Assembly (NCBI GenBank): GCA_025839675.1
Contig: CP104013.1
Coordinates: 2,580,001-2,612,000 of the forward strand
Direction of reading: 5' to 3'
Length of the DNA stretch: 32,000 nt
From: Candidatus Lokiarchaeum ossiferum
Lineage (GTDB): Archaea > Asgardarchaeota > Lokiarchaeia > Sigyniarchaeales > Promethearchaeaceae
Of this stretch, positions 5,958 through 28,332 are shown one piece after another (positions within the stretch are counted from its first letter, which is position 1; every line of letters begins with the position of its first letter). The notes beneath the pieces are model-generated. The model was not told where the DNA came from. It did no database searches and saw nothing but the letters and a program-made list of their open reading frames with translations. A program made the position numbers and the translations under genes.

Positions 5958-7229
5958 TTAAAACATCTGATCCTTCAAAGTTTTAACCGCTTTTTGCTGG
6001 ATTAATTTTTTTTCAGCTTTCTTTTGCTCAGTAATATCTTCCCCAGAACTTAAAATGCCTCTGAATTCTCCTTGTTCGTTGATAATAGGTGCGTTATGCC
6101 AGAAAATCAACTTTTTCTTACCACGTTTATCGAGAATATAATTTTTATTGAATTCATTTTTCCCTTGGCGCACTTTTTCAAGTTCCTTTCTAATAGACGA
6201 ACGATCTTTTTCTTGAATAAAATTTTCGCACCAATCCAACCCTACTACTTCAGTTTCATCATAACCAAGAAGTTGAATCCCTTTACGATTGATTTTTGAT
6301 AATTTCAAATTTTCATCTAGAACAATAAGCATAACTCCAGCAATATCAAAATACATTTGGGCGATGGCTTTTTCCGAAGCAAGTTTCTGTTCAGTTTTTT
6401 TTAAAGAGGTGATATCCATCCCAACAGAGAGAATCTCGACAATTTTTCCATTTTTATCGTAAATGGGTTTATTTGTCCAAGCGACCCACTTTGATGTATT
6501 ATCTTTCAGAATACTTCTCACTTCCCGGAATTCAAAATTCTCAGGGTTTTCCAAGAAGAGTTTCAATCGATCAGCACTAAAAATACCATCTTCCTCCGTT
6601 CTAGGTAGGATGGTTCCAACAATACTCTTGCCCAATATCTCGTCAGATGCATATCCAAAAAATTTCTCAGCAAAGGGGTTTAAAAAGGTCAAGTTTCCAT
6701 TAAGATCAATTTTAATGATAGAATTATTTGCAGTAAGGATCTCATTTGCATTATTTAAAGCGACTTCTGTTCGCAAACGTTCTTCTTCAAATTCCGTGAC
6801 ATATTTTAAGGTTTTTAATCGTTCTTCCCATTTCGAACAAAACTGCGAAGCAAATTCGGTGATATCTATTCCATTACTCATTTTAATTTCATCGATGAAA
6901 TCATTTCGTATGCGCATCAATAAATCGGTTCTAATTTTCCCAATATCCTTATTCAGCTTAAAAATTAAAGAATATTTATCAAAATTGCCTCGAACTTGAG
7001 GATTTTGAATTAAAAAGTTGGTTGCTTGATAAAAAGAATTTCTTTCTTCAAAAAAGAGATTTTTTTTATTTAAACTTAGGGCATCAATAATAATTTTTGA
7101 GGATATATGGTTGCAAGTGTCTTCGCAAAAAGTACAACCTTCACTATCTTGTACATTCAAACAGATTGGACCTTTGTAGTCATCAAACTTACCTAGGGTT
7201 ATTAATATATTAGAGTGATCAAATTGCAA
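5958..7229 (-). CDS. Cytoplasmic sensor protein: novel N-terminal alpha/beta domain, coiled coil and two PAS domains, no output domain
   Basis: 423-aa ORF with a TTG start at 7229 (first ATG-encoded Met is near residue 105). PAS signatures: LTFLNPFAEKFFGYASDEILGKSIVGTILP and KLSKINRKGIQLLGYDETEVVGLDWCENFI. Each ends in the usual (S/G)xxxDIT(E/S) strand (SVGMDITSLKK, SSGEDITEQKK). No kinase, GGDEF or HTH follows. Confidence 0.8.
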   Translation of the reverse strand: MQFDHSNILITLGKFDDYKGPICLNVQDSEGCTFCEDTCNHISSKIIIDALSLNKKNLFFEERNSFYQATNFLIQNPQVRGNFDKYSLIFKLNKDIGKIRTDLLMRIRNDFIDEIKMSNGIDITEFASQFCSKWEERLKTLKYVTEFEEERLRTEVALNNANEILTANNSIIKIDLNGNLTFLNPFAEKFFGYASDEILGKSIVGTILPRTEEDGIFSADRLKLFLENPENFEFREVRSILKDNTSKWVAWTNKPIYDKNGKIVEILSVGMDITSLKKTEQKLASEKAIAQMYFDIAGVMLIVLDENLKLSKINRKGIQLLGYDETEVVGLDWCENFIQEKDRSSIRKELEKVRQGKNEFNKNYILDKRGKKKLIFWHNAPIINEQGEFRGILSSGEDITEQKKAEKKLIQQKAVKTLKDQMF

Positions 7230-7380: not shown

Positions 7381-8235
7381 TCAGTTTTCTTCTACAGTAA
7401 TAGATGTTTTTTTTACTTTTCCAAATCCATAAAAGATGAAAACTGGAGAGATTATCCAAAATAAATGCCCTAGGATATAATAAAAAAGGGTAGGTAAAAC
7501 TAAAATCATCGGGGAGATAAGAGTTATCACACCTAAAATTACCCAATATATATGACCAATCCCAAGGAAAATGATTCCCCACATGAAAAAGGTAATTCGC
7601 TTTTTAAAATCTTTGGAAGGATCTTCTATTGCGATGTCTTTTAGGGTTAGATAAAGCATTAATGCACTGATTAAATAAATAATTACATTTAAAGCAATGG
7701 AAAACCCCGCAAATCCATTGAAGATCCCACTTACATCGATGCCAATGGATGAGATCAAGATTTGAATGATGTCTCCTGCGGAGATTATGATTGTTATTGC
7801 CCCCATTAAAATAATAACAATTGCATTATTCGTAAAAACTGCTTTTACTCTTTCTTCATCATATCGAAGTGCGAATGCTGCAATTAGGAAATTCCAATTC
7901 ATTACAGTGCTAGCCCCAAAAGCAATGTCTCTAAGAATATTCACCCAAAATAGAGATTGATAATTGAAATCATATCCTTGATAAATGCCCATTGGAGTTG
8001 TTTCATCCATGGATAACCCTGCACATGTATAAATAACCATATCCAGTGTAATATAAAGGACCCATGCAAACATCCCTATTAATAGAGATTTGTGAAATTG
8101 TGATCTATCTTTCCAAGCCGTTTGTTTATTTTTCTTGTTAATTAAGTAAATATTCATAATAAATAGAGCGGCTTCAATGGATTTAGGAATAATTAAGGTA
8201 AGTTCTAAATTTGAAATTAAGGGCACAATTATCAC
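7381..8235 (-). CDS. Polytopic integral membrane protein (about 8 TM), unknown function
   Basis: 284-aa ORF from GTG at 8235, with an alternative ATG at 8157 (MNIYLINKKN..). Hydrophobic helices run throughout. The gene sits 44 bp downstream of the GTPase gene on the same strand. Confidence 0.65.
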   Translation of the reverse strand: MIIVPLISNLELTLIIPKSIEAALFIMNIYLINKKNKQTAWKDRSQFHKSLLIGMFAWVLYITLDMVIYTCAGLSMDETTPMGIYQGYDFNYQSLFWVNILRDIAFGASTVMNWNFLIAAFALRYDEERVKAVFTNNAIVIILMGAITIIISAGDIIQILISSIGIDVSGIFNGFAGFSIALNVIIYLISALMLYLTLKDIAIEDPSKDFKKRITFFMWGIIFLGIGHIYWVILGVITLISPMILVLPTLFYYILGHLFWIISPVFIFYGFGKVKKTSITVEEN

Positions 8236-8279: not shown

Positions 8280-9209
8280 TTATGCTTGATACGTTTGCAT
8301 CATTAATGATTTTCTAAAAACAGTATAAATCGTTGATCTATAGATAGTATTTTTAAATCCCACAGGCATTAGCTGTTTGATGGGGCCAATAATTTTCTCA
8401 TTGATGGTTTGCTGGGAAAATTTCCCTTCCTTATCGATATTAGGATCAAATTTGTGAAGAAATATATCCATTTCAAAGGTTTGTGAAAATTGGTCCAAAC
8501 TTCCAATGATCTCGCTCAAATAAGAAATAGATTCAGCATATCGTTTATCATTTTGGACATCGATGACATAGATTATTTTATCAAAGCCTCTGATAACAGA
8601 AATAGGATCTTTTTTAAATTCTTCACGAAAGACTACTTGACCGCCATATTCAAAGTATATTGAATCAGGTTGGATTTTTGTCTCCAAATTCATATCAGAG
8701 AGAATTTCGGACATATGTTTCTTCCCATTTGTTGCTTTGAGATTTTGGTTCATATAAGCCATCAAATTTTTGTTTCCTAAGAAGCTAAGGAGAATTGAAG
8801 TTTTTCCACTACTATCAAGTCCCATGAGTAGTACTTTTTTTCCTTTCATGCCTTTTTTTGCAGAAACAACATCAGATGTAGAAAGATAAGAACTTACGGA
8901 CTCTAACATATCAAAAATCTGTCGATCTCGGATTTTATAAAATTTTTGCGTACCTTCTTTTCGATATGTTACCAAGTTGGAGTTAGATAAACTTTTTAAT
9001 TGCTGCGATGTAGTGGAATGGCTTTTTCCAGTAATTTTTTCAATATCACTGACAGTCAGCGGACCAGATCGAAGAGATTGAAGAATTGCCATTCTAGTAT
9101 CATCGGCAATTGCCTTCAAGACATTCATATATGTGAATTTATTTTCCATTTTAGTACTCTCAACGGGTAATTTTTCTTTCTTATATATGTTTAAAAGAAG
9201 CTCAAACAT
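8280..9209 (-). CDS. ArsR-family winged-HTH fused to a Rag/Gtr1-like small GTPase domain
   Basis: 309-aa ORF with ATG at 9209 (alternative ATG at 9149). The wHTH is ADDTRMAILQSLRSGPLTVSDIEKITGKSHSTTSQQLKSLSNSNLV. GTPase motifs: G1 GLDSSGKT (nt 8799-8822), G3-like FEYGGQ, and G4 in the Rag-type HKxD form (FLHKFD). KKVLLMG, IIYVIDVQN and YRSTIY resemble RagA as I recall it. Confidence 0.75.
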   Translation of the reverse strand: MFELLLNIYKKEKLPVESTKMENKFTYMNVLKAIADDTRMAILQSLRSGPLTVSDIEKITGKSHSTTSQQLKSLSNSNLVTYRKEGTQKFYKIRDRQIFDMLESVSSYLSTSDVVSAKKGMKGKKVLLMGLDSSGKTSILLSFLGNKNLMAYMNQNLKATNGKKHMSEILSDMNLETKIQPDSIYFEYGGQVVFREEFKKDPISVIRGFDKIIYVIDVQNDKRYAESISYLSEIIGSLDQFSQTFEMDIFLHKFDPNIDKEGKFSQQTINEKIIGPIKQLMPVGFKNTIYRSTIYTVFRKSLMMQTYQA

Positions 9210-9406
9210 TTAAACACTTTGACATTTAGGTATTGATCCAGTTAAAATCACAAAAAAACTAATTTAATTTGATGATCTAAAAGTCACTTAGTTTGAATGT
9301 CCAAATATCCAAACATTTAAATATATATAATTATTAAATAATATTATCCCGAAATTGTTATCACATCAATTCTTCAAAAATGGAAGAAAGGAAAGGGTAA
9401 AAAAAA
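9210..9406. promoter_or_regulatory. Divergent promoter/operator region between the wHTH-GTPase gene and the ABC operon
   Basis: 197-bp AT-rich spacer between divergent starts. TATA-like TTTAAATATATATAA at 9316-9330. Purine-rich RBS (GGAAAGGG) a few nt before ATG 9407. No transcription start data. Confidence 0.4.
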
Positions 9407-10204
9407 ATGACTGAAAATCAAAATAAAACCGTTGCAAGTGAAAACGCATATGCAATAGAAGTTGAAAACTTAAAAAAGCACTTCACTAGTAAATCCGAAG
9501 CTAACATTGTGAAAGCTGTTGACGATATATCCTTCAAAGTTAAGGAAGGCGAATTCTTTGGACTTTTAGGGCCAAATGGCGCTGGGAAAACCACCACCAT
9601 AAAAATGTTGACAGGTCTTAGCACCCCATCTGAAGGAACCGCACGCATTGGAGGATATGATCTTAAATCACAAATGATGAAGATTAAAGAATCTATTAGT
9701 GTATGCCCTCAGGAACCAGCCTTGTTTAAATTTCTCTCGGGAATTGAGAACATTGAATTTTTTGCAAATCTACACTTGATGTCAAAAACCGAAATCAAAG
9801 CTCAAGCAGAGAAATTCTTAAATCTCTTGGGACTATACGATGTCCGTAAAAGAAAAGTAAAAGGTTATAGTGGTGGAATGTTGCGACAGCTTAGTTTAAT
9901 TGTATCATTGATCCATGATCCAGAAACAATATTTTTAGATGAACCAACTGTAGGTATGGATCCACGTGCTCGACGTAAAGTGTGGGATTTTCTTGGAACT
10001 ATCAAAAAACAAAAGAAAACAATCATCTTAACCACCCATTATATAGAGGAAGCCGAAGCCCTTTGTGATAGAGTGGCAATCATTGATTATGGAAAGTTAG
10101 TTGCCTTAGGAGCACCCCAAGATCTTATTGCCCAATATGAAGTTAAAAATTTAGAAGAAGTCTTTATGAAAATAACTGGCAGAAGCATTTTGGAGGGGTT
10201 ATAA
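9407..10204 (+). CDS. ABC transporter ATP-binding protein (ABC-2 / DrrA-type exporter ATPase)
   Basis: Walker A GPNGAGKTT, Q-loop region, signature YSGGMLRQLS, Walker B IFLDEPTVGMD, H-loop TTHY. 265 aa. Confidence 0.95.
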   Translation: MTENQNKTVASENAYAIEVENLKKHFTSKSEANIVKAVDDISFKVKEGEFFGLLGPNGAGKTTTIKMLTGLSTPSEGTARIGGYDLKSQMMKIKESISVCPQEPALFKFLSGIENIEFFANLHLMSKTEIKAQAEKFLNLLGLYDVRKRKVKGYSGGMLRQLSLIVSLIHDPETIFLDEPTVGMDPRARRKVWDFLGTIKKQKKTIILTTHYIEEAEALCDRVAIIDYGKLVALGAPQDLIAQYEVKNLEEVFMKITGRSILEGL

Positions 10205-10206
10205 AA

Positions 10207-10962
10207 ATGGAATTTCAAAGAATACGAGCCATTGTTAAAATGGAAATTAAACGTCAGCTACGAGATCCCCTAACTCTATTCATAACCACCCTAATGGTAC
10301 CAGCACTGATCGTAGTAATGGGTTTATCGTTAGATTCCGTGTATTCATGGTCTCCAGACTATAGTGTATTTGAAATAATGTTTCCTGGATTTCTGGCTTA
10401 TGGATGTTTGCTGACAATTTTTGATGTTGCAGGATCCGTGGCAACGGAAAAGGAATTAGGAGTTCAAATTCGGCTGATAACTAGTCCTCTGTCATCTTCT
10501 GAATATATATTTGCTCAATTAATCGCTTATACAATTAAACCTTTGGTTCAAGCAATTATAGGAATTCCACTTGGATATTTAGTTGGATACCGCCCTGATA
10601 TTTCCGTAATGGGATACATCTTAATAGTAGTATTTCTGATAATTCTAACCTTTTGCTCAGTCGGATTTGGACTTATTACAGCAAGTTTAGTAAAGAATGC
10701 CGGAGCAGCACAAGGTTTAGCTTTCGCATTCATAGTCCCCCAACAAATCTTTGGATCTTTTATCCCAGCCGCTTTCTTCGGATTAGAAAAATTTGCATGG
10801 GTCCTTCCCAGTTTTTATGCGACAGATGGAATTGGACTCATCTTTGCAGGAACAAATCTCTTAGATTCCCAAATTTGGCTTCGAATGTTATTGCTTTGCA
10901 CCATAAGTTTAGTAATTTATGTAATCGGAACTTTTCTTTTTGAGAAAAATAAAAAATCATAA
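10207..10962 (+). CDS. ABC-2 type transporter permease
   Basis: Starts 2 nt after the ATPase stop, with a GGAGGGG RBS upstream. 251 aa, six hydrophobic helices, typical ABC-2 length and layout. Paralogous to the C-terminal half of the next ORF. Confidence 0.85.
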   Translation: MEFQRIRAIVKMEIKRQLRDPLTLFITTLMVPALIVVMGLSLDSVYSWSPDYSVFEIMFPGFLAYGCLLTIFDVAGSVATEKELGVQIRLITSPLSSSEYIFAQLIAYTIKPLVQAIIGIPLGYLVGYRPDISVMGYILIVVFLIILTFCSVGFGLITASLVKNAGAAQGLAFAFIVPQQIFGSFIPAAFFGLEKFAWVLPSFYATDGIGLIFAGTNLLDSQIWLRMLLLCTISLVIYVIGTFLFEKNKKS

Positions 10963-10983
10963 AAATATTGGAGAGTAAAAACT

Positions 10984-12921
10984 ATGCAGAAAATAACACA
11001 CAAAAGCAAATTGAACTCAAATCGTGAAGTATGGGTAGATTATCTACGGATATTTGCCGTTTTTTTAGTTATTCCTTACCATATAATAATCTCCTATGTT
11101 GAGAGTGTGTTTGGTGAAGGGACACACTTCACAATTTGGAACGAATATTTCCCAAAAGGAGCTCACCAGATTTGGAATTTCTTCAATCCTTGGCATATGC
11201 AATTACTTTTTGTTCTGGCGGGTTTTAGTTTGGTCCTTTCATTAAAAAAACGTTCATTCAAGATTTTTACTCAAGAACGTCTTATCCGAATTGGAATCCC
11301 AATCATTTTTGGAATTATCTTGTTAAACGCCATAATGAGTTGGTTTAGCACCATGTTTTATTACAATTTACACCCAGAAGTTAATCCAATATACCCAAAC
11401 CTTCCAGATTTTTGGACATTTTTTGTCTATTGGTGGTGGATAGGAAAATCTTTCAATTCAGGTCATTTATGGTTCTTAGTTGTATTGCTTGTGTTAAGCC
11501 TCGGGATGGGATTGATCATTTCACTTATACAAAAAAAGAAAGCCGATTCCACTCACAATCAGAATAGGTCAACAAAATTTCTTAAATTTCTAACACATCC
11601 AGCCACAATGTTATTATGGGGTCTAATAGCAACACCTTTAAGCTATATTAAACCAGCCTACACAAATCCAACTCTATCTGCCATATTTGGAGTCTTTCAA
11701 TACAATCAAGTTCTATTCTTTCTTTTTGGGATCATTCTTGCATGTAATCGACAAAATATAGACAGAATCAATCAACATTGGAAATGGACACTACCTCTTG
11801 GATTCAGTATGTTAATCACTTGGATTATATTTCAAAAAGATTATCTTCTGGTCTTAAAAAATGTTGGAGCATGGTTCTTTGTATATGGACTGATTTGTTT
11901 AGCAAGTGTGAAACTCACAAAATCCTCAAAAACCCTCCAATATCTATCAAAAGCCAGTATGCCAGTTTACATTCTTCATTTACCTTTGGAAATTATTGTT
12001 GGCTACTTTATAATTCAACTTCCAATTTATCCGATATTGGAAATCTTTCTACTTGTGATCATCAATTTAATCTTATGTTTTCTTTTATATGATGGAATAC
12101 ATAGATTAAATCGAGTAATTCCAGGGATAGGGTTAGTAGTTGGTATTAAAGAGAAGAATATGATGCAAAAAATTCGCCGAATGTTAACAATTGTGAAATT
12201 AGAAATGAAAAGACTATTTCGGGAACCAATGACAGTTATCTTTACATTATTCCTTGTTCCAATTCTAATCATAATTCTTGGGCTAGCCATGGGTTCAAAT
12301 TACGGTTGGCATCCGGATTACTCAATATTTGATATAATGATGCCAGGATTATTAGCCTATAATGCATTACTTTCCACATATGATGTGGCCGCATCTGTTG
12401 CAAGCGAAAAAGAGTTAGGAATTCAAATAAGGATTAACACAACACCACTAACATCTGCAGAATATATTGGGAGTCATTTAATATCCTATTCCATTAAGCC
12501 AATTATTCAATTGTTGCTAAGTTTACTCACAGCCTATGCTGTTGGATATCGCCCCGTAGCTTCAGTGGTTGGTTATATCGTTGTAATTGCATTCATGATT
12601 TTTTTAACCTTATGTTCTGTCGGTTTTGGGCTGATTACAGCAAATTTCGCAAAAAGTTCCAGTTCCGCGGGAAGTTTAGCTTTTGCGTTTATCGTACCAC
12701 AGCAAATTTTCGCATCCATAATCCCTCCTGCGTTTTTGGGAATGGAAAAATTGGCCATGTTCATGCCAAGCTTTTATGCAACTGAAGGTATGGGTCTTCT
12801 TTTAGCAGGTGCATCTTTAACAACACCAGATATTTGGGCCAAAATGGGGATATTGGGGATTTTCACATTAGTATTTGTGATTATTGGAACAATTCTTTAT
12901 GAAAAAGGACGAAAGGAGTAG
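10984..12921 (+). CDS. Fusion protein: acyltransferase-3 (OafA/AT3) membrane domain plus a second ABC-2 permease domain
   Basis: Single 645-aa frame with no stop. The N-terminal ~390 aa carry the AT3 TM1 signature (REVWVDYLRIFAVFLVIPYHI: R, D, R, H) and about 10 TM helices. Residues 393-645 (from the ATG pair at 12160) align along their full length with the 10207-10962 permease (e.g. GFGLITA, LAFAFIVPQQIF, PSFYAT). Confidence 0.8.
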   Translation: MQKITHKSKLNSNREVWVDYLRIFAVFLVIPYHIIISYVESVFGEGTHFTIWNEYFPKGAHQIWNFFNPWHMQLLFVLAGFSLVLSLKKRSFKIFTQERLIRIGIPIIFGIILLNAIMSWFSTMFYYNLHPEVNPIYPNLPDFWTFFVYWWWIGKSFNSGHLWFLVVLLVLSLGMGLIISLIQKKKADSTHNQNRSTKFLKFLTHPATMLLWGLIATPLSYIKPAYTNPTLSAIFGVFQYNQVLFFLFGIILACNRQNIDRINQHWKWTLPLGFSMLITWIIFQKDYLLVLKNVGAWFFVYGLICLASVKLTKSSKTLQYLSKASMPVYILHLPLEIIVGYFIIQLPIYPILEIFLLVIINLILCFLLYDGIHRLNRVIPGIGLVVGIKEKNMMQKIRRMLTIVKLEMKRLFREPMTVIFTLFLVPILIIILGLAMGSNYGWHPDYSIFDIMMPGLLAYNALLSTYDVAASVASEKELGIQIRINTTPLTSAEYIGSHLISYSIKPIIQLLLSLLTAYAVGYRPVASVVGYIVVIAFMIFLTLCSVGFGLITANFAKSSSSAGSLAFAFIVPQQIFASIIPPAFLGMEKLAMFMPSFYATEGMGLLLAGASLTTPDIWAKMGILGIFTLVFVIIGTILYEKGRKE

Positions 12922-15071: not shown

Positions 15072-16304
15072 ATGGATACTGAATACGATCAAACTGCAAC
15101 TCTCGAAGAATTACAAGTGGAATCATCGCAAAGGAAGAGATATTTTCAAGTGGATGCCATGAAGGCAATCATGATTGGATTGGTAATTATGGATCATACC
15201 TTTACTCACAGTTTTTTACATCAATTTGGATCTCCTTTTTGGGAACGAATTTCAATCCCAATATTGATGATCATTATGGGTTTTAATTTGGGAAACTCAT
15301 CGAAGGGAATAAATCACATGAAATTAAAAGATTATTATACCCGATCTTATTTTGAGAAGAAATTGAAGCGATATTTCATCCCCTACCTCATTCTTTACTT
15401 CATTCACGGTATAATGAGGTTAATTGTAACATTAGGGGAGATTCAAATAAATTCCCCTGCAACATATGATTCAGCGGTCTTTCGGTACCTAGGATTCACG
15501 CTCTTTTACGGTCCAGGCTTGTGGTTCATCCCGGTTCTCTTTGGAACAATACTAGTGTTTCCAATCTTACATTTCTACTTTAAAAAAATGCCATCAACAA
15601 CTTTTTTTGCAACTTTTTGTATAGAATTTTTGACCCAATTTATTGTATTAATGATCCTTAGTACCAATCAAGGTAATATTCTAGGAGTATTTTACTTTCT
15701 TTACAGTGTTTTCTGTTTGTTCAGTGCTATTGGAATGGGATTATGGCTTTCAATTGATCATAATATGTCATCCAAACATAACGTAGTAATTTGGATCCTT
15801 TTTCCAATCAGTTTAGGATACATGATTATCGCTATGATATTCCCAGGGCTTTTATTTTTCCCAATTGGTGATTATCAAATGTTTTATTTCCCCTATTCTG
15901 CAGTAATATTTATGTGTTGCATGAAACTTATCCCCGAAAATCCCAAAGGTACAGTTAGTGAGTTTATTAGGAAAGTGAGTAAATCCACATATCATATTTT
16001 ATTAGCCCAGATATTTTATTTCTCAATTGTTTTTCAATTCTTTTTGATAATGACCGATGGAGATGCTTCCACCCTTGATATTTTTGATGCAGCACCTTTG
16101 AACTATTTATGGTTCTTTCCACTAAATTTGGTTATTACATTTGGAATTGGATTATTTTGGAACCATCTTGAAGAGAAGTTTTATAAAAAGATGCCTGAAA
16201 AGAGAGGATATCAAAAAATATATGCTTTTATGCTAACATTGGCCGTGATCGCATTTGCAGCATGGATAATTGGACAAATTTTATTTTTCTTTGTGGTATT
16301 TTAA
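15072..16304 (+). CDS. Acyltransferase-3 family integral membrane protein
   Basis: 410-aa ORF with a GAGGA RBS. The AT3 TM1 signature is RKRYFQVDAMKAIMIGLVIMDHTF (R, D, H), followed by about 10 TM helices. Confidence 0.7.
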   Translation: MDTEYDQTATLEELQVESSQRKRYFQVDAMKAIMIGLVIMDHTFTHSFLHQFGSPFWERISIPILMIIMGFNLGNSSKGINHMKLKDYYTRSYFEKKLKRYFIPYLILYFIHGIMRLIVTLGEIQINSPATYDSAVFRYLGFTLFYGPGLWFIPVLFGTILVFPILHFYFKKMPSTTFFATFCIEFLTQFIVLMILSTNQGNILGVFYFLYSVFCLFSAIGMGLWLSIDHNMSSKHNVVIWILFPISLGYMIIAMIFPGLLFFPIGDYQMFYFPYSAVIFMCCMKLIPENPKGTVSEFIRKVSKSTYHILLAQIFYFSIVFQFFLIMTDGDASTLDIFDAAPLNYLWFFPLNLVITFGIGLFWNHLEEKFYKKMPEKRGYQKIYAFMLTLAVIAFAAWIIGQILFFFVVF

Positions 16305-25831: not shown

Positions 25832-27259
25832 TTATTGGCCTGTACTTGATAACAAAATAGACACTACGAGCCCTAAAAGAAGCAAAACTAATAGAATAAA
25901 ATAATATTTTGGTTTCCATTTTTTGATATACTTCCCATCGAGTGCAAATCCCTTGAATTCGCCCGGAAACATATTAAATGTCCCTAAAACGCAATTTAAG
26001 GATCCCCCTTGTAAGAAAATCATCTTCAAAGTAGATAAGGATCCGGGGAGTATGAGTGAAATTAGAATAAATACTAATCCAAGGATGAAATTTGAAGCGG
26101 GACCCGCAATTTTAATCGCCCCCATTTTATCTTTATCATCGTCAGGATCAACCCCAACAGATACGGCAGCTCCGGGTAAAGCGATTGGAATTCCAATTAT
26201 TGCAGAACGAAGGGTTGTTTTCATCCCTACAGTTGTTAAACAAAAACGACTTTGGAAATGAAAATGTTTCCCTGTCTGTAGATGAGCGGTTTCATGCACA
26301 ATAAAAGACAGAGAAAAGATTAAAGCAATAGGGAGAGGTTCAAAAAATATTGCAGATATGCCGATAAAGTATTGATATTGGATATAATAATATAAAGCAG
26401 TTAATCCCATAACATTAATATAAGAGTGATACACCATAATAAAAAGTAAACTAAAGGCAACAAGAATATGCCATGTTTCACTCTTTTCTAATTTATAGAC
26501 CATTCCCAAATCTAATCCAGAATCTGGACGAAAGGCATTTGGAGGAATAGGCATTTTTCTTTTGACTAAAATGAAACTATTGGAAGTAAAGGAAGGATCC
26601 TCTGGATCCATAAAAATTGCATTCCGTCTTCGATAAGCAGGAGCCATAGATGGATCATGAACTGGGGGAACGGTGGGTGCCTGGGTTGGATCAAAATAAA
26701 CTCCACCAGATGACGATTCTTCGCTAGGTGCCACCGTTGGAGATTGAGTAGGATCAGTGAAGGAATGATGCGAGCGTGAAGGAGGTGCCACAGTAGAAGC
26801 AATTGTGGGATCTTTGAATGGTTCTTCATTTAATTTTTCTACTTGACTTGAACCACTTCCATTTGGAGTGTTAATTGTAGTATCATGAAAAATAAGATCC
26901 ATTTGAATCAACGTACCGTTTTCTTCGACAGGTACAATAATTTTATCACCATTTTTCAAGAGTTGTGGGGTTGTTTGTTTTAAATTCAAGTTTCCCAGGT
27001 AAGTTCCATTCGTACTATTTAGATCCTCGATGTAATAACGATCTCCTCTTAAAGAAATAATAAATTGTTGTTTAACATAACTCCCGGTTTTTGGATCTTT
27101 TCGAACACTCGAAATAGCGGAAAATAGTGCGGGATCAACGCTAAGTGTTGCAGATTTTTTGATATCCTTCTTTCCTATGTGAAAAACGTGTTGATTTTGA
27201 GGGAGGAGAATTTTACCACCAATTTTGGGAATTTCCAGATAAATTTCGCGAACAACCAT
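25832..27259 (-). CDS. FHA domain fused through a Pro/Ser/Thr-rich linker to an M50 site-2 protease membrane domain
   Basis: 475 aa. FHA core is ISLRGDRYYIEDLNSTNGTYLGN...LKNGDKIIVP. The membrane half carries an intramembrane HETAH (nt 26282-26296), AGPASNF, and the second S2P motif NMFPGEFKGFALDG (N..P....LDG). Confidence 0.8.
   Translation of the reverse strand: MVVREIYLEIPKIGGKILLPQNQHVFHIGKKDIKKSATLSVDPALFSAISSVRKDPKTGSYVKQQFIISLRGDRYYIEDLNSTNGTYLGNLNLKQTTPQLLKNGDKIIVPVEENGTLIQMDLIFHDTTINTPNGSGSSQVEKLNEEPFKDPTIASTVAPPSRSHHSFTDPTQSPTVAPSEESSSGGVYFDPTQAPTVPPVHDPSMAPAYRRRNAIFMDPEDPSFTSNSFILVKRKMPIPPNAFRPDSGLDLGMVYKLEKSETWHILVAFSLLFIMVYHSYINVMGLTALYYYIQYQYFIGISAIFFEPLPIALIFSLSFIVHETAHLQTGKHFHFQSRFCLTTVGMKTTLRSAIIGIPIALPGAAVSVGVDPDDDKDKMGAIKIAGPASNFILGLVFILISLILPGSLSTLKMIFLQGGSLNCVLGTFNMFPGEFKGFALDGKYIKKWKPKYYFILLVLLLLGLVVSILLSSTGQ
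26660..26815 (-). repeat. Coding tandem repeat in the FHA-S2P linker (three DPTxxxTVxP units)
   Basis: The units are DPTIASTVAPP, DPTQSPTVAPS and DPTQAPTVPPV, spaced 18-21 residues apart (protein residues about 149-200). Confidence 0.7.
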
Positions 27260-27324: not shown

Positions 27325-28332
27325 TCAATAAATGCCCGTAACCACGCGGCGTCCAAATTTATTAAACATTAATTTCCCACCTAAAATACCCATTAGCTGT
27401 CCAACATAAGAAGCAGTTGAGATTCCGGTGAAAAATATACCTAAAATTGCAAATACAGAGGAATAAGCAATTAAAAAATAAAGAATATATTTCGCTTTGA
27501 GTTTAACGGGAATGAAATAGAGATACATTCGCATTTCTCGATTTAAACCAACAAGATGCAATAGGAAAGTCATCATGCCAAGAATAGCGCACCATTGAGT
27601 AGAAATCAAGAATAAATCCAACAATCTCCCGATAGAAAGTATCATTCCTAAAGATTGGACAAGCACTATTGATAAAACACCCAATCCACCGCAAGCTAAA
27701 TAAATGGTAGCCATGAATTTTGATCCAAATTGCATTTCAATGGATTTACCAATAGAATAGAGCATTAATTCAGCAAAAAGTAATCCAAAAATATCGCGAG
27801 GGGCAAACATAGATGTTATTAAAGTTGGAATTGCTAAAATACTTGAAAATAGATTTAATGTATTGAATAGAATATATGGTTCCAATATTGGAAAGAGCGT
27901 TAGGACGAAGAAAAACGCTGATAAGCCCATAAACGTATAGGTGACTTGCATCTTATTTGTCCGTGAAATAAATGGACTATAATTTTCACCAGTGGGACGA
28001 CTGCCTCTAGTAGGAGGAGGGGGCATAGCTTGACGTTCTTGAGCCCGGATATAATCGCGCATTTCCCGTTCCATTTGTTTTTCGGTATCTTCAGGAGTGG
28101 TATAGTTCGGAGTATTAAAATTATTTTGAGCGGGATTATAAGATTCTTCTGGCACTGAAGTAGTTGATGAAGCAACTGTCGTCCGAGCACGAGGGTTATC
28201 ATTCATAGAAAACGTACAATCATGATTTTCAGGTAATCGATGTAGTTTACAAAAAGTTCCGCCACAATATCGACATTTAAAAGGGAGATAAGTCAACGTT
28301 TCGTTGCAATCGGGAGTATCGCATTTAACCAT
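27325..28332 (-). CDS. AN1-type zinc finger fused to a rhomboid-fold six-TM domain that lacks recognisable catalytic residues
   Basis: 335 aa with a GAGGA RBS. The AN1 pattern is C-x4-C-x10-C-x2-C-x4-C-x2-H-x5-H-x-C ([28 protein letters not shown]). The membrane part matches the rhomboid TM2-3 core (LITSMF...[28 protein letters not shown]). The HxxxN, GxSG and TM6 His positions read GLLFAE, TQWC and SYVGQ instead. Confidence 0.7.

Follow-up and report, generated by a model that had tools for sequence, protein, structure and literature searches.

The small GTPases of Asgard archaea have been divided into the ArfR, ArfL, RasL, RagGtr and MglA classes, and the stand-alone protein NVM28500.1 was placed in the RagGtr class by phylogeny (Vargova et al.). 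Longins of the GTPase-activating protein (GAP) type, such as FLCN, NPRL2, SMCR8 and C9orf72, are defined by two features, a GP motif where strand β2 begins and an arginine finger close to it, and non-GAP longins are without the GP motif; both features are found in some Asgard longins, for which ArfR or Rag/Gtr GTPases were raised as possible partners and the question was left open (PMC12290439). The catalytic finger of FLCN for RagC is Arg164 (PMC9473554). In bacteria, the conservon and Group 3 MglA modules have been proposed to couple a GTPase to transcription (PMC4316618). The present report concerns the gene NEF87_002160 of Candidatus Lokiarchaeum ossiferum and its neighbours, which lie in a 32,000-nucleotide stretch of the genome (GenBank assembly GCA_025839675.1, contig CP104013.1, positions 2,580,001 to 2,612,000), here called the window. 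The encoded protein consists of an ArsR/SmtB winged helix–turn–helix (wHTH), a linker of ~ 15 residues and a small-GTPase domain of probable RagGtr class.

Dozens of eukaryote-like small GTPases in Asgard archaea are without a simple readout. At this locus the output domain is a wHTH with candidate operators, and the adjacent genes encode a candidate GAP and a membrane partner. The favoured interpretation, with a probability of about 0.55, is that NEF87_002160 is a GTP-switched ArsR-type transcription regulator with its own PAS-controlled longin GAP. This candidate mechanism, already put forward in the original prediction, gains support from the split-gene relatives of the fusion, the neighbouring folliculin-type GAP longin and the conserved upstream boxes, which are described in turn below.

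The fusion protein and its split relatives

NEF87_002160 lies in a closed genome of 6.03 Mb and is annotated as a hypothetical or HTH arsR-type protein, with nothing further. The original prediction, made from the sequence alone, had described an open reading frame (ORF) of 309 codons here, and that frame is present as described, with all of the quoted motif strings in its translation (Table 1). The position of the protein N terminus, on the other hand, needed revision. The 16 homologous fusion proteins (276–295 aa) each begin at the equivalent of M21 (MENKF...), and a conserved upstream element, Box A, overlaps codons 1–3 of the longer ORF, so that M21 (9149) is most likely the true start and the product most likely 289 aa in length.

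The wHTH was matched by Pfam HTH_5 (1.9e-12) and by the NCBIfam ArsR/SmtB metalloregulator model NF033788 (HTH_metalloreg; 9.5e-21, 73 bits against a cutoff of 55), and among solved structures it aligned to SmtB (5.6e-10), NmtR, CzrA and similar proteins. An AlphaFold2 (AF2) model of the fusion protein, with a predicted local distance difference test score (pLDDT) of 79, displayed a canonical five-helix ArsR fold with a wing, followed by a disordered linker and the G domain; in model numbering the wHTH is made up of helices 2–14, 17–28, 33–40 and 44–56, strands 60–73 and helix 78–92. The recognition helix was found to be the best-conserved part of the wHTH in fused and split forms alike, and the signature KS[QH]STxSQ[QH][LI]K is common to both. 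The α3N Cys and α5 Asp/His/His/Glu metal ligands were looked for in ORF residues 21–115, and the classical metal sites are missing, because this region contains no Cys and only a single His (H64, within the recognition helix). By its sequence, the wHTH resembles the non-metal ArsR subgroups.

The G domain gave its highest Pfam score with Gtr1_RagA (9.8e-18, 65 bits; residues 125–299 aligned to model positions 1–170 of 232), and weaker matches were obtained with Arf (2.3e-7, 31 bits), SRPRB (6.5e-6, 26 bits) and Ras (0.034, 14 bits). Sequence comparison with solved structures placed the domain closest to 8zla and 8yl2 (chains named ‘GTP-binding protein’), then RagC, Gtr1 and RagA. A profile of 119 relatives matched 8yl2 (1.8e-49) and 8zla (5.4e-37) best; RagC/D (~ 1e-19) were matched over the whole G domain, and Arl3/Arf6 (~ 1e-18) with coverage only through G3/G4. 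The PDB entry 8yl2 is described as ‘homo-tetrameric RagA-like small GTPase from Asgard Lokiarchaeota (LokiRagO)’; literature searches turned up no publication on PDB 8ZLA/8YL2 or ‘LokiRagO’. The RagGtr class of the domain is taken here from its identity to NVM28500.1, a stand-alone member of the same G family (37% over the full length, E 2e-35), and is to be read alongside Arf/Arl profile scores that lie near the Rag scores and a tree, described below, that contains no eukaryotic references. The class has been called ‘Rag-like but also close to Arf’ by Tran et al., which agrees with the scores obtained here. Membership of the Arf family itself was rejected, as G4 is HKFD and not NKxD, the G domain is preceded by the wHTH and disordered linker and not by the N-terminal amphipathic helix of Arf proteins, and the Arf match had about half of the Gtr1_RagA score and reached only up to G4.

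By its motifs the domain is a ‘mini’ RagGtr domain with the catalytic residues retained. The first position of G3 is Glu in 16 of 16 fused forms, whereas among the stand-alone forms (n = 95) it is Asp in 90 and Glu in 5. The tail beyond G5 measures 8–15 aa in fused and stand-alone forms, compared with 143 aa in related 320-aa proteins. The most divergent fusion (L004:2022-2900; 36% identity; Promethearchaeota Bin_342) has EYGGS at G3, and is thus without the catalytic Gln, and its neighbours differ. The original prediction had called an ArsR/SmtB wHTH, a Rag/Gtr1-like G domain with the Rag-specific HKxD form of G4, and the loss of the roadblock domain. The first of these is borne out by the profile matches, the SmtB alignment and the AF2 fold, and the second by Gtr1_RagA outscoring Arf, SRPRB and Ras and by the HKxD motif, which is invariant among the 119 relatives. 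The C-terminal roadblock domain is indeed missing, since the ORF stops 13 residues past G5 and the Gtr1_RagA model is covered only to position 170 of 232.

A structural comparison with RagA and a survey of related genomes had also been proposed. In the former, Foldseek with the AF2 model returned 8yl2 first (E 1e-10), then RagD, Gtr1, RagA and Arl2/3. In the latter, the continuous fusion ORF recurred in about 17 clusters of proteins (sources: NCBI, JGI, ENA and Logan), which show 44–100% identity and a conserved linker. The fusion is present at 13 of the 54 loci annotated with hidden Markov models (HMMs), and a paralogue, P0014 (NEF87_000796; 44% identity), is encoded in the same genome. At ~ 13 further loci, from Helarchaeota and other Promethearchaeota, an ArsR gene of 109–113 aa is followed after 12–76 nt by a G gene of ~ 180 aa from the same family, and the ArsR halves are homologous across fused and split loci. 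In a neighbour-joining tree of the G domains, 17 of 17 fused sequences formed one clade, nested among the stand-alone and split forms. These Rosetta-stone relatives, together with the nesting of the fused clade among them, suggest that the fusion arose only once and that a functional ArsR–G partnership predates it.

The split 111-aa ArsR proteins have a conserved C-terminal tail, D[IV]LDTL[HY], past helix α5, in the place that is occupied by the linker and G domain in the fusions. It could be that this tail is a docking peptide for the G protein. At the closest split relative, seen on 17 contigs (L018:3593-6532, also L019), the ArsR and G genes are followed by genes for a MASE3-PAS histidine kinase and a response regulator; this pair may be another membrane/PAS input beside ArsR–G, and it is reminiscent of the conservon. 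Locus L008 (DATKTP010000188.1) was binned as the bacterium ‘Candidatus Deferrimicrobium sp.’, yet it contains an Asgard-type split ArsR–G pair and POR genes syntenic with L023, and the contig is probably misbinned.

Conserved neighbours and upstream boxes

Two genes, NEF87_002159 and the gene for a longin-PAS-PAS protein, accompany the fusion. The pair is constant in seven of seven clade-1 loci, being arranged in tandem downstream of the fusion in the window, L001, L002, L003 and L012, divergently in L014, and divergently with two inserted genes in L016. A fourth arrangement is found at the clade-2 locus L024, from the fusion clade of 51% identity, where the PAS protein stands alone in convergent order (53% identical to the window protein, E 2e-97). 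The linkage is independent of co-transcription, because it is kept in divergent and convergent arrangements. NEF87_002159 is predicted, from hydropathy and the positive-inside rule, to contain seven transmembrane (TM) helices, with an N-out/C-in charge bias; no relatives of it were found in Pfam, NCBIfam or the PDB, and its family comprises only 18 clusters.

The first ~ 150 residues of the longin-PAS protein are its best-conserved part, and the segment KFDDYKGP, four Cys residues and R80-G81-N82 are invariant in orthologues. An AF2 model of the longin domain, for which a broader family alignment (A6) was the input, had a pLDDT of 87.7 and a predicted template-modelling score of 0.82, and its order of elements (β-β-α-β-β-β-α-α) is that of a longin. 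The top Foldseek matches of this model were FLCN (8dhb, the active FLCN GAP complex, and 6ulg_L, a chain checked to be folliculin), GATOR1 NPRL2/NPRL3, FNIP2, yeast SEAC Npr2/3 and a Lokiarchaeal longin, with probabilities of 0.98–1.0 and modest E values of 2e-3 to 6e-2. Arg80 was aligned to FLCN Arg164 by BLASTP (E 0.009) and by hhalign (E 0.042), each alignment being weak alone. When the longin domain was compared with the PDB by sequence profile, nothing significant was found, the only match being RecR zinc-finger-like and located at the Cys cluster; this cluster has a weak likeness to the RecR C4 zinc finger and could serve as a structural Zn site or as a redox/Fe-S sensor.

An exhaustive HMMER search for the longin family yielded 17 representatives. 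One of them, P0152 (326 aa), is a GAP-type longin family member fused to an Arf-like small GTPase (Arf 2.4e-28). As the fold, the motif positions, the P0152 fusion and the gene linkage agree, the longin-PAS protein is a candidate GAP longin of the folliculin type on the strength of several signals that are each weak. Two further members, P0143 and P0145, have hydrophobic N- and C-terminal segments, which suggests membrane-anchored versions.

Longin-like proteins were also seen elsewhere in the survey. L005:4927-5985 and L006:5761-6810, which are on the minus strand and immediately precede the split pairs, encode proteins of 349–352 aa in which an N-terminal longin/uDENN-like region, containing F-x-x-K-[LI]-G-P, precedes a Rab/Ras-like G domain. 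The stand-alone mini-G genes without an ArsR neighbour are adjoined, 3' or 5', by a gene for a protein of ~ 130–150 aa with no Pfam match, whose weak PDB matches are all of the longin fold (TRAPPC4, Bet5 and SRα SRX) and which looks like a second recurrent partner of the mini-G family. A relationship between these ~ 140-aa proteins and the GAP longins was tried and rejected (hhalign probability 0.7%).

When the sequences upstream of the gene were aligned for six orthologous loci, about 30 of 34 invariant columns lay in two islands, termed Box A and Box B. The core common to both, GTTTAAATGTTTG, is present with one mismatch or fewer only at 9203–9215 and 9310–9322 in the 32-kb window, where 0.25 occurrences are expected; a distance of 107 bp separates these two copies, which have the same orientation. 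Both boxes are kept in L016 despite a different divergent neighbour, and Box A is kept in L014; a search upstream of the split ArsR–G pairs and of the other fusion clades found no clade-1 boxes. As each box contains the TATA-like sequence TTTAAA, they may be promoter elements, overlapping operators, or both. Archaeal repressor sites often overlap the region of the TATA box and the B recognition element. A perfect 8-nt inverted repeat at 9188–9216 was rejected as an operator, as it is not conserved in orthologues. In the split loci L005:6850-6905 and L018:2480-2500, which come from different samples, a common upstream ATATAACGATAT motif was observed, which is repeated in L005, is unlike the clade-1 boxes, and may be an operator of the split ArsR proteins.

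The original prediction had pointed to the divergent transporter operon as a layout typical of a local regulator. This operon is directly divergent in four of seven related loci (the window, L002, L012 and L013). It is displaced by four inserted genes in L001 and is not at that position in L014 and L016, and the linkage that withstands rearrangement is instead that to the 7-TM and longin-PAS genes downstream, which the original prediction had not remarked on. The exporter is a possible regulatory target of the fusion, though not a constant one. Within the operon, the third gene (10984-12921, plus strand) encodes an acyltransferase-3 domain (6.8e-35) fused to an ABC-2 permease, and a second, stand-alone acyltransferase-3 gene is located at 15072-16304. 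Further along the window, two adjacent genes encode intramembrane proteases with unusual N-terminal domains, namely FHA plus peptidase M50 (25832-27259, minus strand) and zf-AN1 plus rhomboid (27325-28332, minus strand).

Table 1. Features of the NEF87_002160 locus and of related loci. Positions are those of the window unless a locus is named.
Feature	Position	Strand	Details
Fusion ORF	8280..9209	−	309 aa, one uninterrupted frame; locus NEF87_002160, Ca. Lokiarchaeum ossiferum
Likeliest coding sequence	8280..9149	−	289 aa from M21, plus stop; from homologue starts and Box A position
20-codon N-terminal extension	9150..9209	−	Probably untranslated 5' region; missing in all 16 homologues; overlaps Box A
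ArsR/SmtB-type winged HTH	8880..9122	−	ORF aa 30–110; five helices and β-wing
Recognition helix KSHSTTSQQLKSL	8988..9026	−	Aligns to SmtB vSESAVSHQLRSL
Flexible linker	8841..8879	−	ORF aa 111–123; AF2 pLDDT < 50 at model residues 87–101
Small-GTPase domain of probable RagGtr class, without roadblock	8283..8840	−	ORF aa 124–309
G1 P-loop GLDSSGKTS	8796..8822	−	G, K, T invariant or nearly so among 119 family members
Switch I threonine T160	8730..8732	−	Invariant in 119 sequences
G3 EYGGQ	8637..8651	−	Glu for the usual Asp; catalytic Gln191 retained; Gly-Gly-Gln invariant or nearly so in 119 relatives
G4 HKFD	8445..8456	−	Rag-type HKxD; H, K, D invariant in 119 sequences
G5 region STIY	8322..8333	−	Only 13 residues remain after G5
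Partner 1, predicted 7-TM membrane protein NEF87_002159	7381..8235	−	284 aa (276–291 across clade-1)
Partner 2, candidate GAP-type longin + PAS + PAS protein	5958..7229	−	423 aa (423–428 across clade-1)
Longin domain of partner 2	6795..7229	−	aa 1–145
GP motif G20-P21	7167..7172	−	Predicted start of strand β2 (20–23); invariant in orthologues; P21 at least 90% conserved in wider family
Four-Cys cluster C23-x8-C32-x2-C35-x3-C39	7113..7163	−	Inserted between β2 and α1; all four invariant in orthologues
Arg80, candidate arginine finger	6990..6992	−	β4–β5 loop; invariant in orthologues
Two PAS domains of partner 2	6021..6734	−	aa 166–273 and 297–403; PAS 5e-23; PAS_9 5e-20; TIGR00229 7e-36
Box A TACCTAAATGTCAAAGTGTTTAAATGTTTGAGC	9200..9232	−	Candidate promoter/operator of fusion operon; in L001, L003, L012, L014, L016, partly L002
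Box B TATATTTAAATGTTTGGATATTTGGACATTCAAACTA	9289..9325	−	Second 13-mer copy and GGAYATT repeats; in L001, L002, L003, L012, L016
Divergent DrrA/DrrB-type ABC-2 exporter operon	9407..12921	+	ATPase, permease, acyltransferase-3::permease fusion; Pfam and NCBIfam
D[IV]LDTL[HY]-tailed ArsR genes	L005:6977-7312, L006:6995-7330, L008:2239-2574, L018:2613-2948, L023:3152-3487		
Genes for ~ 130–150-aa neighbours of stand-alone G genes	L007:7562-7999, L009:2147-2581, L010:3794-4216, L020:3600-4043, L022:3057-3446		Also at about 7 further loci

A candidate GTP switch and its alternatives

The favoured interpretation of these data is that the locus encodes a one-component-style switch with a dedicated regulator. 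The DNA-binding module would be a non-metal-sensing ArsR/SmtB wHTH, presumably a homodimer, and the signal-receiving module a RagGtr G domain that is catalytically competent by its motifs and is joined just past the dimer-interface helix α5, at the place where SmtB/CzrA-type relatives sense metal. The GTP/GDP state of the G domains would then set the geometry or availability of the ArsR dimer, or its sequestration off DNA, and with it operator occupancy. The target sites would be the two boxes with TTTAAATGTTTG that are conserved in front of the fusion's own operon, where they overlap TATA-like elements. The longin-PAS-PAS protein would be the cognate GAP, resetting the G domains by means of its folliculin-type GP motif and the Arg80 finger, and a signal sensed by its PAS domains or its Cys cluster would control this activity. 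A membrane anchor, receptor or exchange-factor function could fall to the 7-TM protein.

A stronger version of the same idea takes the locus as a complete, minimal cassette of an ancestral Rag–folliculin type, in which a PAS/redox signal would act on the longin GAP, the GAP on the nucleotide state of the Rag G domain, and the G domain on DNA binding. This is considered a tentative proposal, possible but on balance doubtful. If it were true, the Rag/FLCN partnership would predate eukaryotes, first as a transcription switch that was later rewired to TOR and the lysosome, and Rag/Gtr GTPases would be the partners of the GP-motif Asgard longins about which the question was raised in PMC12290439.

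A number of points weigh against the favoured interpretation. For the longin, the Pfam Folliculin match is sub-threshold (E 0.067 for the window protein; four of the 17 family members match, the best at 0.025), the hhalign probability between the longin and folliculin is 1.3%, and the leading Foldseek matches have E values of 2e-3 to 1e-2 with template-modelling scores of about 0.4–0.54. Eukaryotic GAP longins are heterodimers with a second longin and contain DENN domains, and neither is present here, the C-terminal part consisting of the two PAS domains and the locus containing no second GAP-longin gene. No exchange factor for the fusion G domain was identified, and fusion clades L004, L017 and L025 show neither partner gene in the sequence available. 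The Asp-to-Glu change in G3 could alter Mg2+ or nucleotide handling. The neighbour-joining tree of the G domains carries no support values. In the upstream region, the two boxes could be plain TATA boxes, given that both contain TTTAAA, and a search for the conserved palindrome typical of ArsR operators found none. Finally, the case is built from sequence, predicted structure and gene context.

In a competing explanation, the wHTH is not used for DNA binding and is instead a dimerisation module in place of the roadblock, such that a Rag-like dimer would signal via the 7-TM and longin-PAS proteins at the membrane. Rags are obligate dimers through the roadblock domain that is missing here, and ArsR proteins are obligate dimers too; moreover, one partner is a membrane protein and the other is GAP-like, neither being obviously related to transcription, and a palindromic operator is not seen. 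However, the canonical DNA-reading signature of ArsR proteins has been kept, with the recognition helix the most conserved part of the wHTH in fused and split forms, the NCBIfam ArsR/SmtB model exceeds its curated cutoff, and the conserved boxes lie in the gene's own upstream region, as ArsR autoregulation predicts. This explanation is considered unlikely, while surviving best among the competing ones.

It is also improbable, and next in rank, that the divergent ABC-2 exporter is simply repressed by the protein as a local regulator of the conventional kind, with the G domain a passive, CodY-like sensor of the guanine-nucleotide pool and no switch driven by a GAP and an exchange factor. The direct adjacency of the exporter operon in the window, L002, L012 and L013, the position of Box B on its side of the spacer, and the restriction of the G3 Asp-to-Glu change to the fused clade would all fit such a repressor. 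The transporter, though, is displaced in L001 and is not at the position in L014 and L016, and Box B persists (L001, L016); the invariant catalytic Gln and switch I Thr argue for hydrolysis, and a GAP-type longin gene is linked in four arrangements.

The longin-PAS and 7-TM genes might, alternatively, be regulated cargo and not regulators of the G domain, with the longin acting on others among the dozens of Rag- or Arf-like GTPases in Lokiarchaea. Small GTPases are numerous in these organisms and their genes mostly lie outside operons with their regulators (PMC10933270), and the co-orientation of the pair with the fusion would fit simple co-transcription. Against this, the linkage holds in divergent and convergent order and P0152 shows a longin of this family in fusion with a GTPase, and the proposal is regarded as quite doubtful, ranking below the previous two. 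That the fusion is an assembly or annotation artefact, a frameshift or chimera uniting two neighbouring genes, is effectively excluded, for in spite of the split pairs in other lineages and the copy at L016:1606-2482 that is broken over two reading frames inside the G domain, four independent data sources yield the unbroken ORF in about 17 clusters with the linker conserved, one copy being from a closed genome, and in the split forms the ArsR is a distinct protein of 111 aa that ends in a C-terminal tail and stop codon of its own. The broken L016 copy, which has its partner genes and both upstream boxes intact, is either a pseudogene or a sequencing error.

Comparison with known systems

Full-text literature searches, including the main Asgard GTPase and longin papers, returned no mention of an ArsR/HTH–GTPase fusion or of the three-gene module, in line with the lack of precedent already remarked on in the original prediction. 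The nearest precedents are gene-neighbourhood links of bacterial MglA-type GTPases with wHTH proteins or histidine kinases, as in Group 3 MglA and the conservon. The locus gives the first evidence from gene neighbourhood that, in archaea, pairs a folliculin-like longin bearing the GP motif with a GTPase of the Rag class, and it bears on the origin of Rag–FLCN/GATOR nutrient signalling. L. ossiferum is a cultured organism, and three recombinant proteins would allow nucleotide-dependent DNA binding and GAP specificity to be assayed in vitro.

The closest relatives in sequence and structure are the Asgard RagGtr GTPases (LokiRagO, PDB 8YL2/8ZLA; classes of Klinger 2016, Tran 2024 and Vargova 2025), whose stand-alone members of ~ 180 aa were classed as RagGtr by phylogeny (Vargova et al.). 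The architectures described for that class are the G domain alone or with roadblock and/or longin domains, whereas the literature searched makes no mention of an ArsR wHTH at the N terminus, and the subfamily of the fusion terminates 8–15 residues past G5.

The eukaryotic Rag/Gtr GTPases and their longin GAPs (FLCN-FNIP for RagC/D; GATOR1 NPRL2-NPRL3 for RagA/B) are similar in the best score to Gtr1_RagA, the HKxD motif and the match over the full length of the G domain, and the neighbouring longin is structurally nearest to FLCN and NPRL2/3, with a GP motif and an Arg aligned to FLCN Arg164. As in the FLCN–RagC–TFEB/TFE3 axis, the output would be transcriptional. Unlike the Rags, the fusion is without a roadblock and so without a Rag-type heterodimer, and there is no Ragulator, TOR or lysosome; its G domain is covalently tied to a DNA-binding domain, where Rags recruit a kinase, and its G3 has the form ExGGQ. 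The longin in the window bears PAS and not DENN domains and has no second longin partner.

With the ArsR/SmtB repressors the fusion shares the five-helix and wing fold, the canonical recognition helix, and the position of the gene beside its own conserved upstream boxes. It differs from them in having no α3N/α5 metal ligands, sensing apparently having been assumed by the C-terminal G domain past α5. The actinobacterial conservon (CvnA-D) and Group 3 MglA modules likewise combine a small Ras-superfamily GTPase with a membrane sensor and a regulator of roadblock/longin fold, and Group 3 MglA also has a neighbouring wHTH. However, their GTPase is of the MglA type, their regulator is a roadblock MglB homologue and not a GP-motif longin, their sensor is a histidine kinase, and fusion of the wHTH with the GTPase never occurs; the window locus was found to contain no roadblock, kinase or CvnC homologue, and the likeness is one of analogy only.

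A DNA-binding output under the control of a bound purine nucleotide is known from STAND/LAL regulators such as MalT and from the GTP-sensing CodY. Regulators of these types use STAND ATPase or GAF domains, and not a Ras-superfamily G domain with a dedicated GAP. If the favoured interpretation is correct, the switching of a transcription factor by a Ras-superfamily G domain would add a new design to the one-component regulators.

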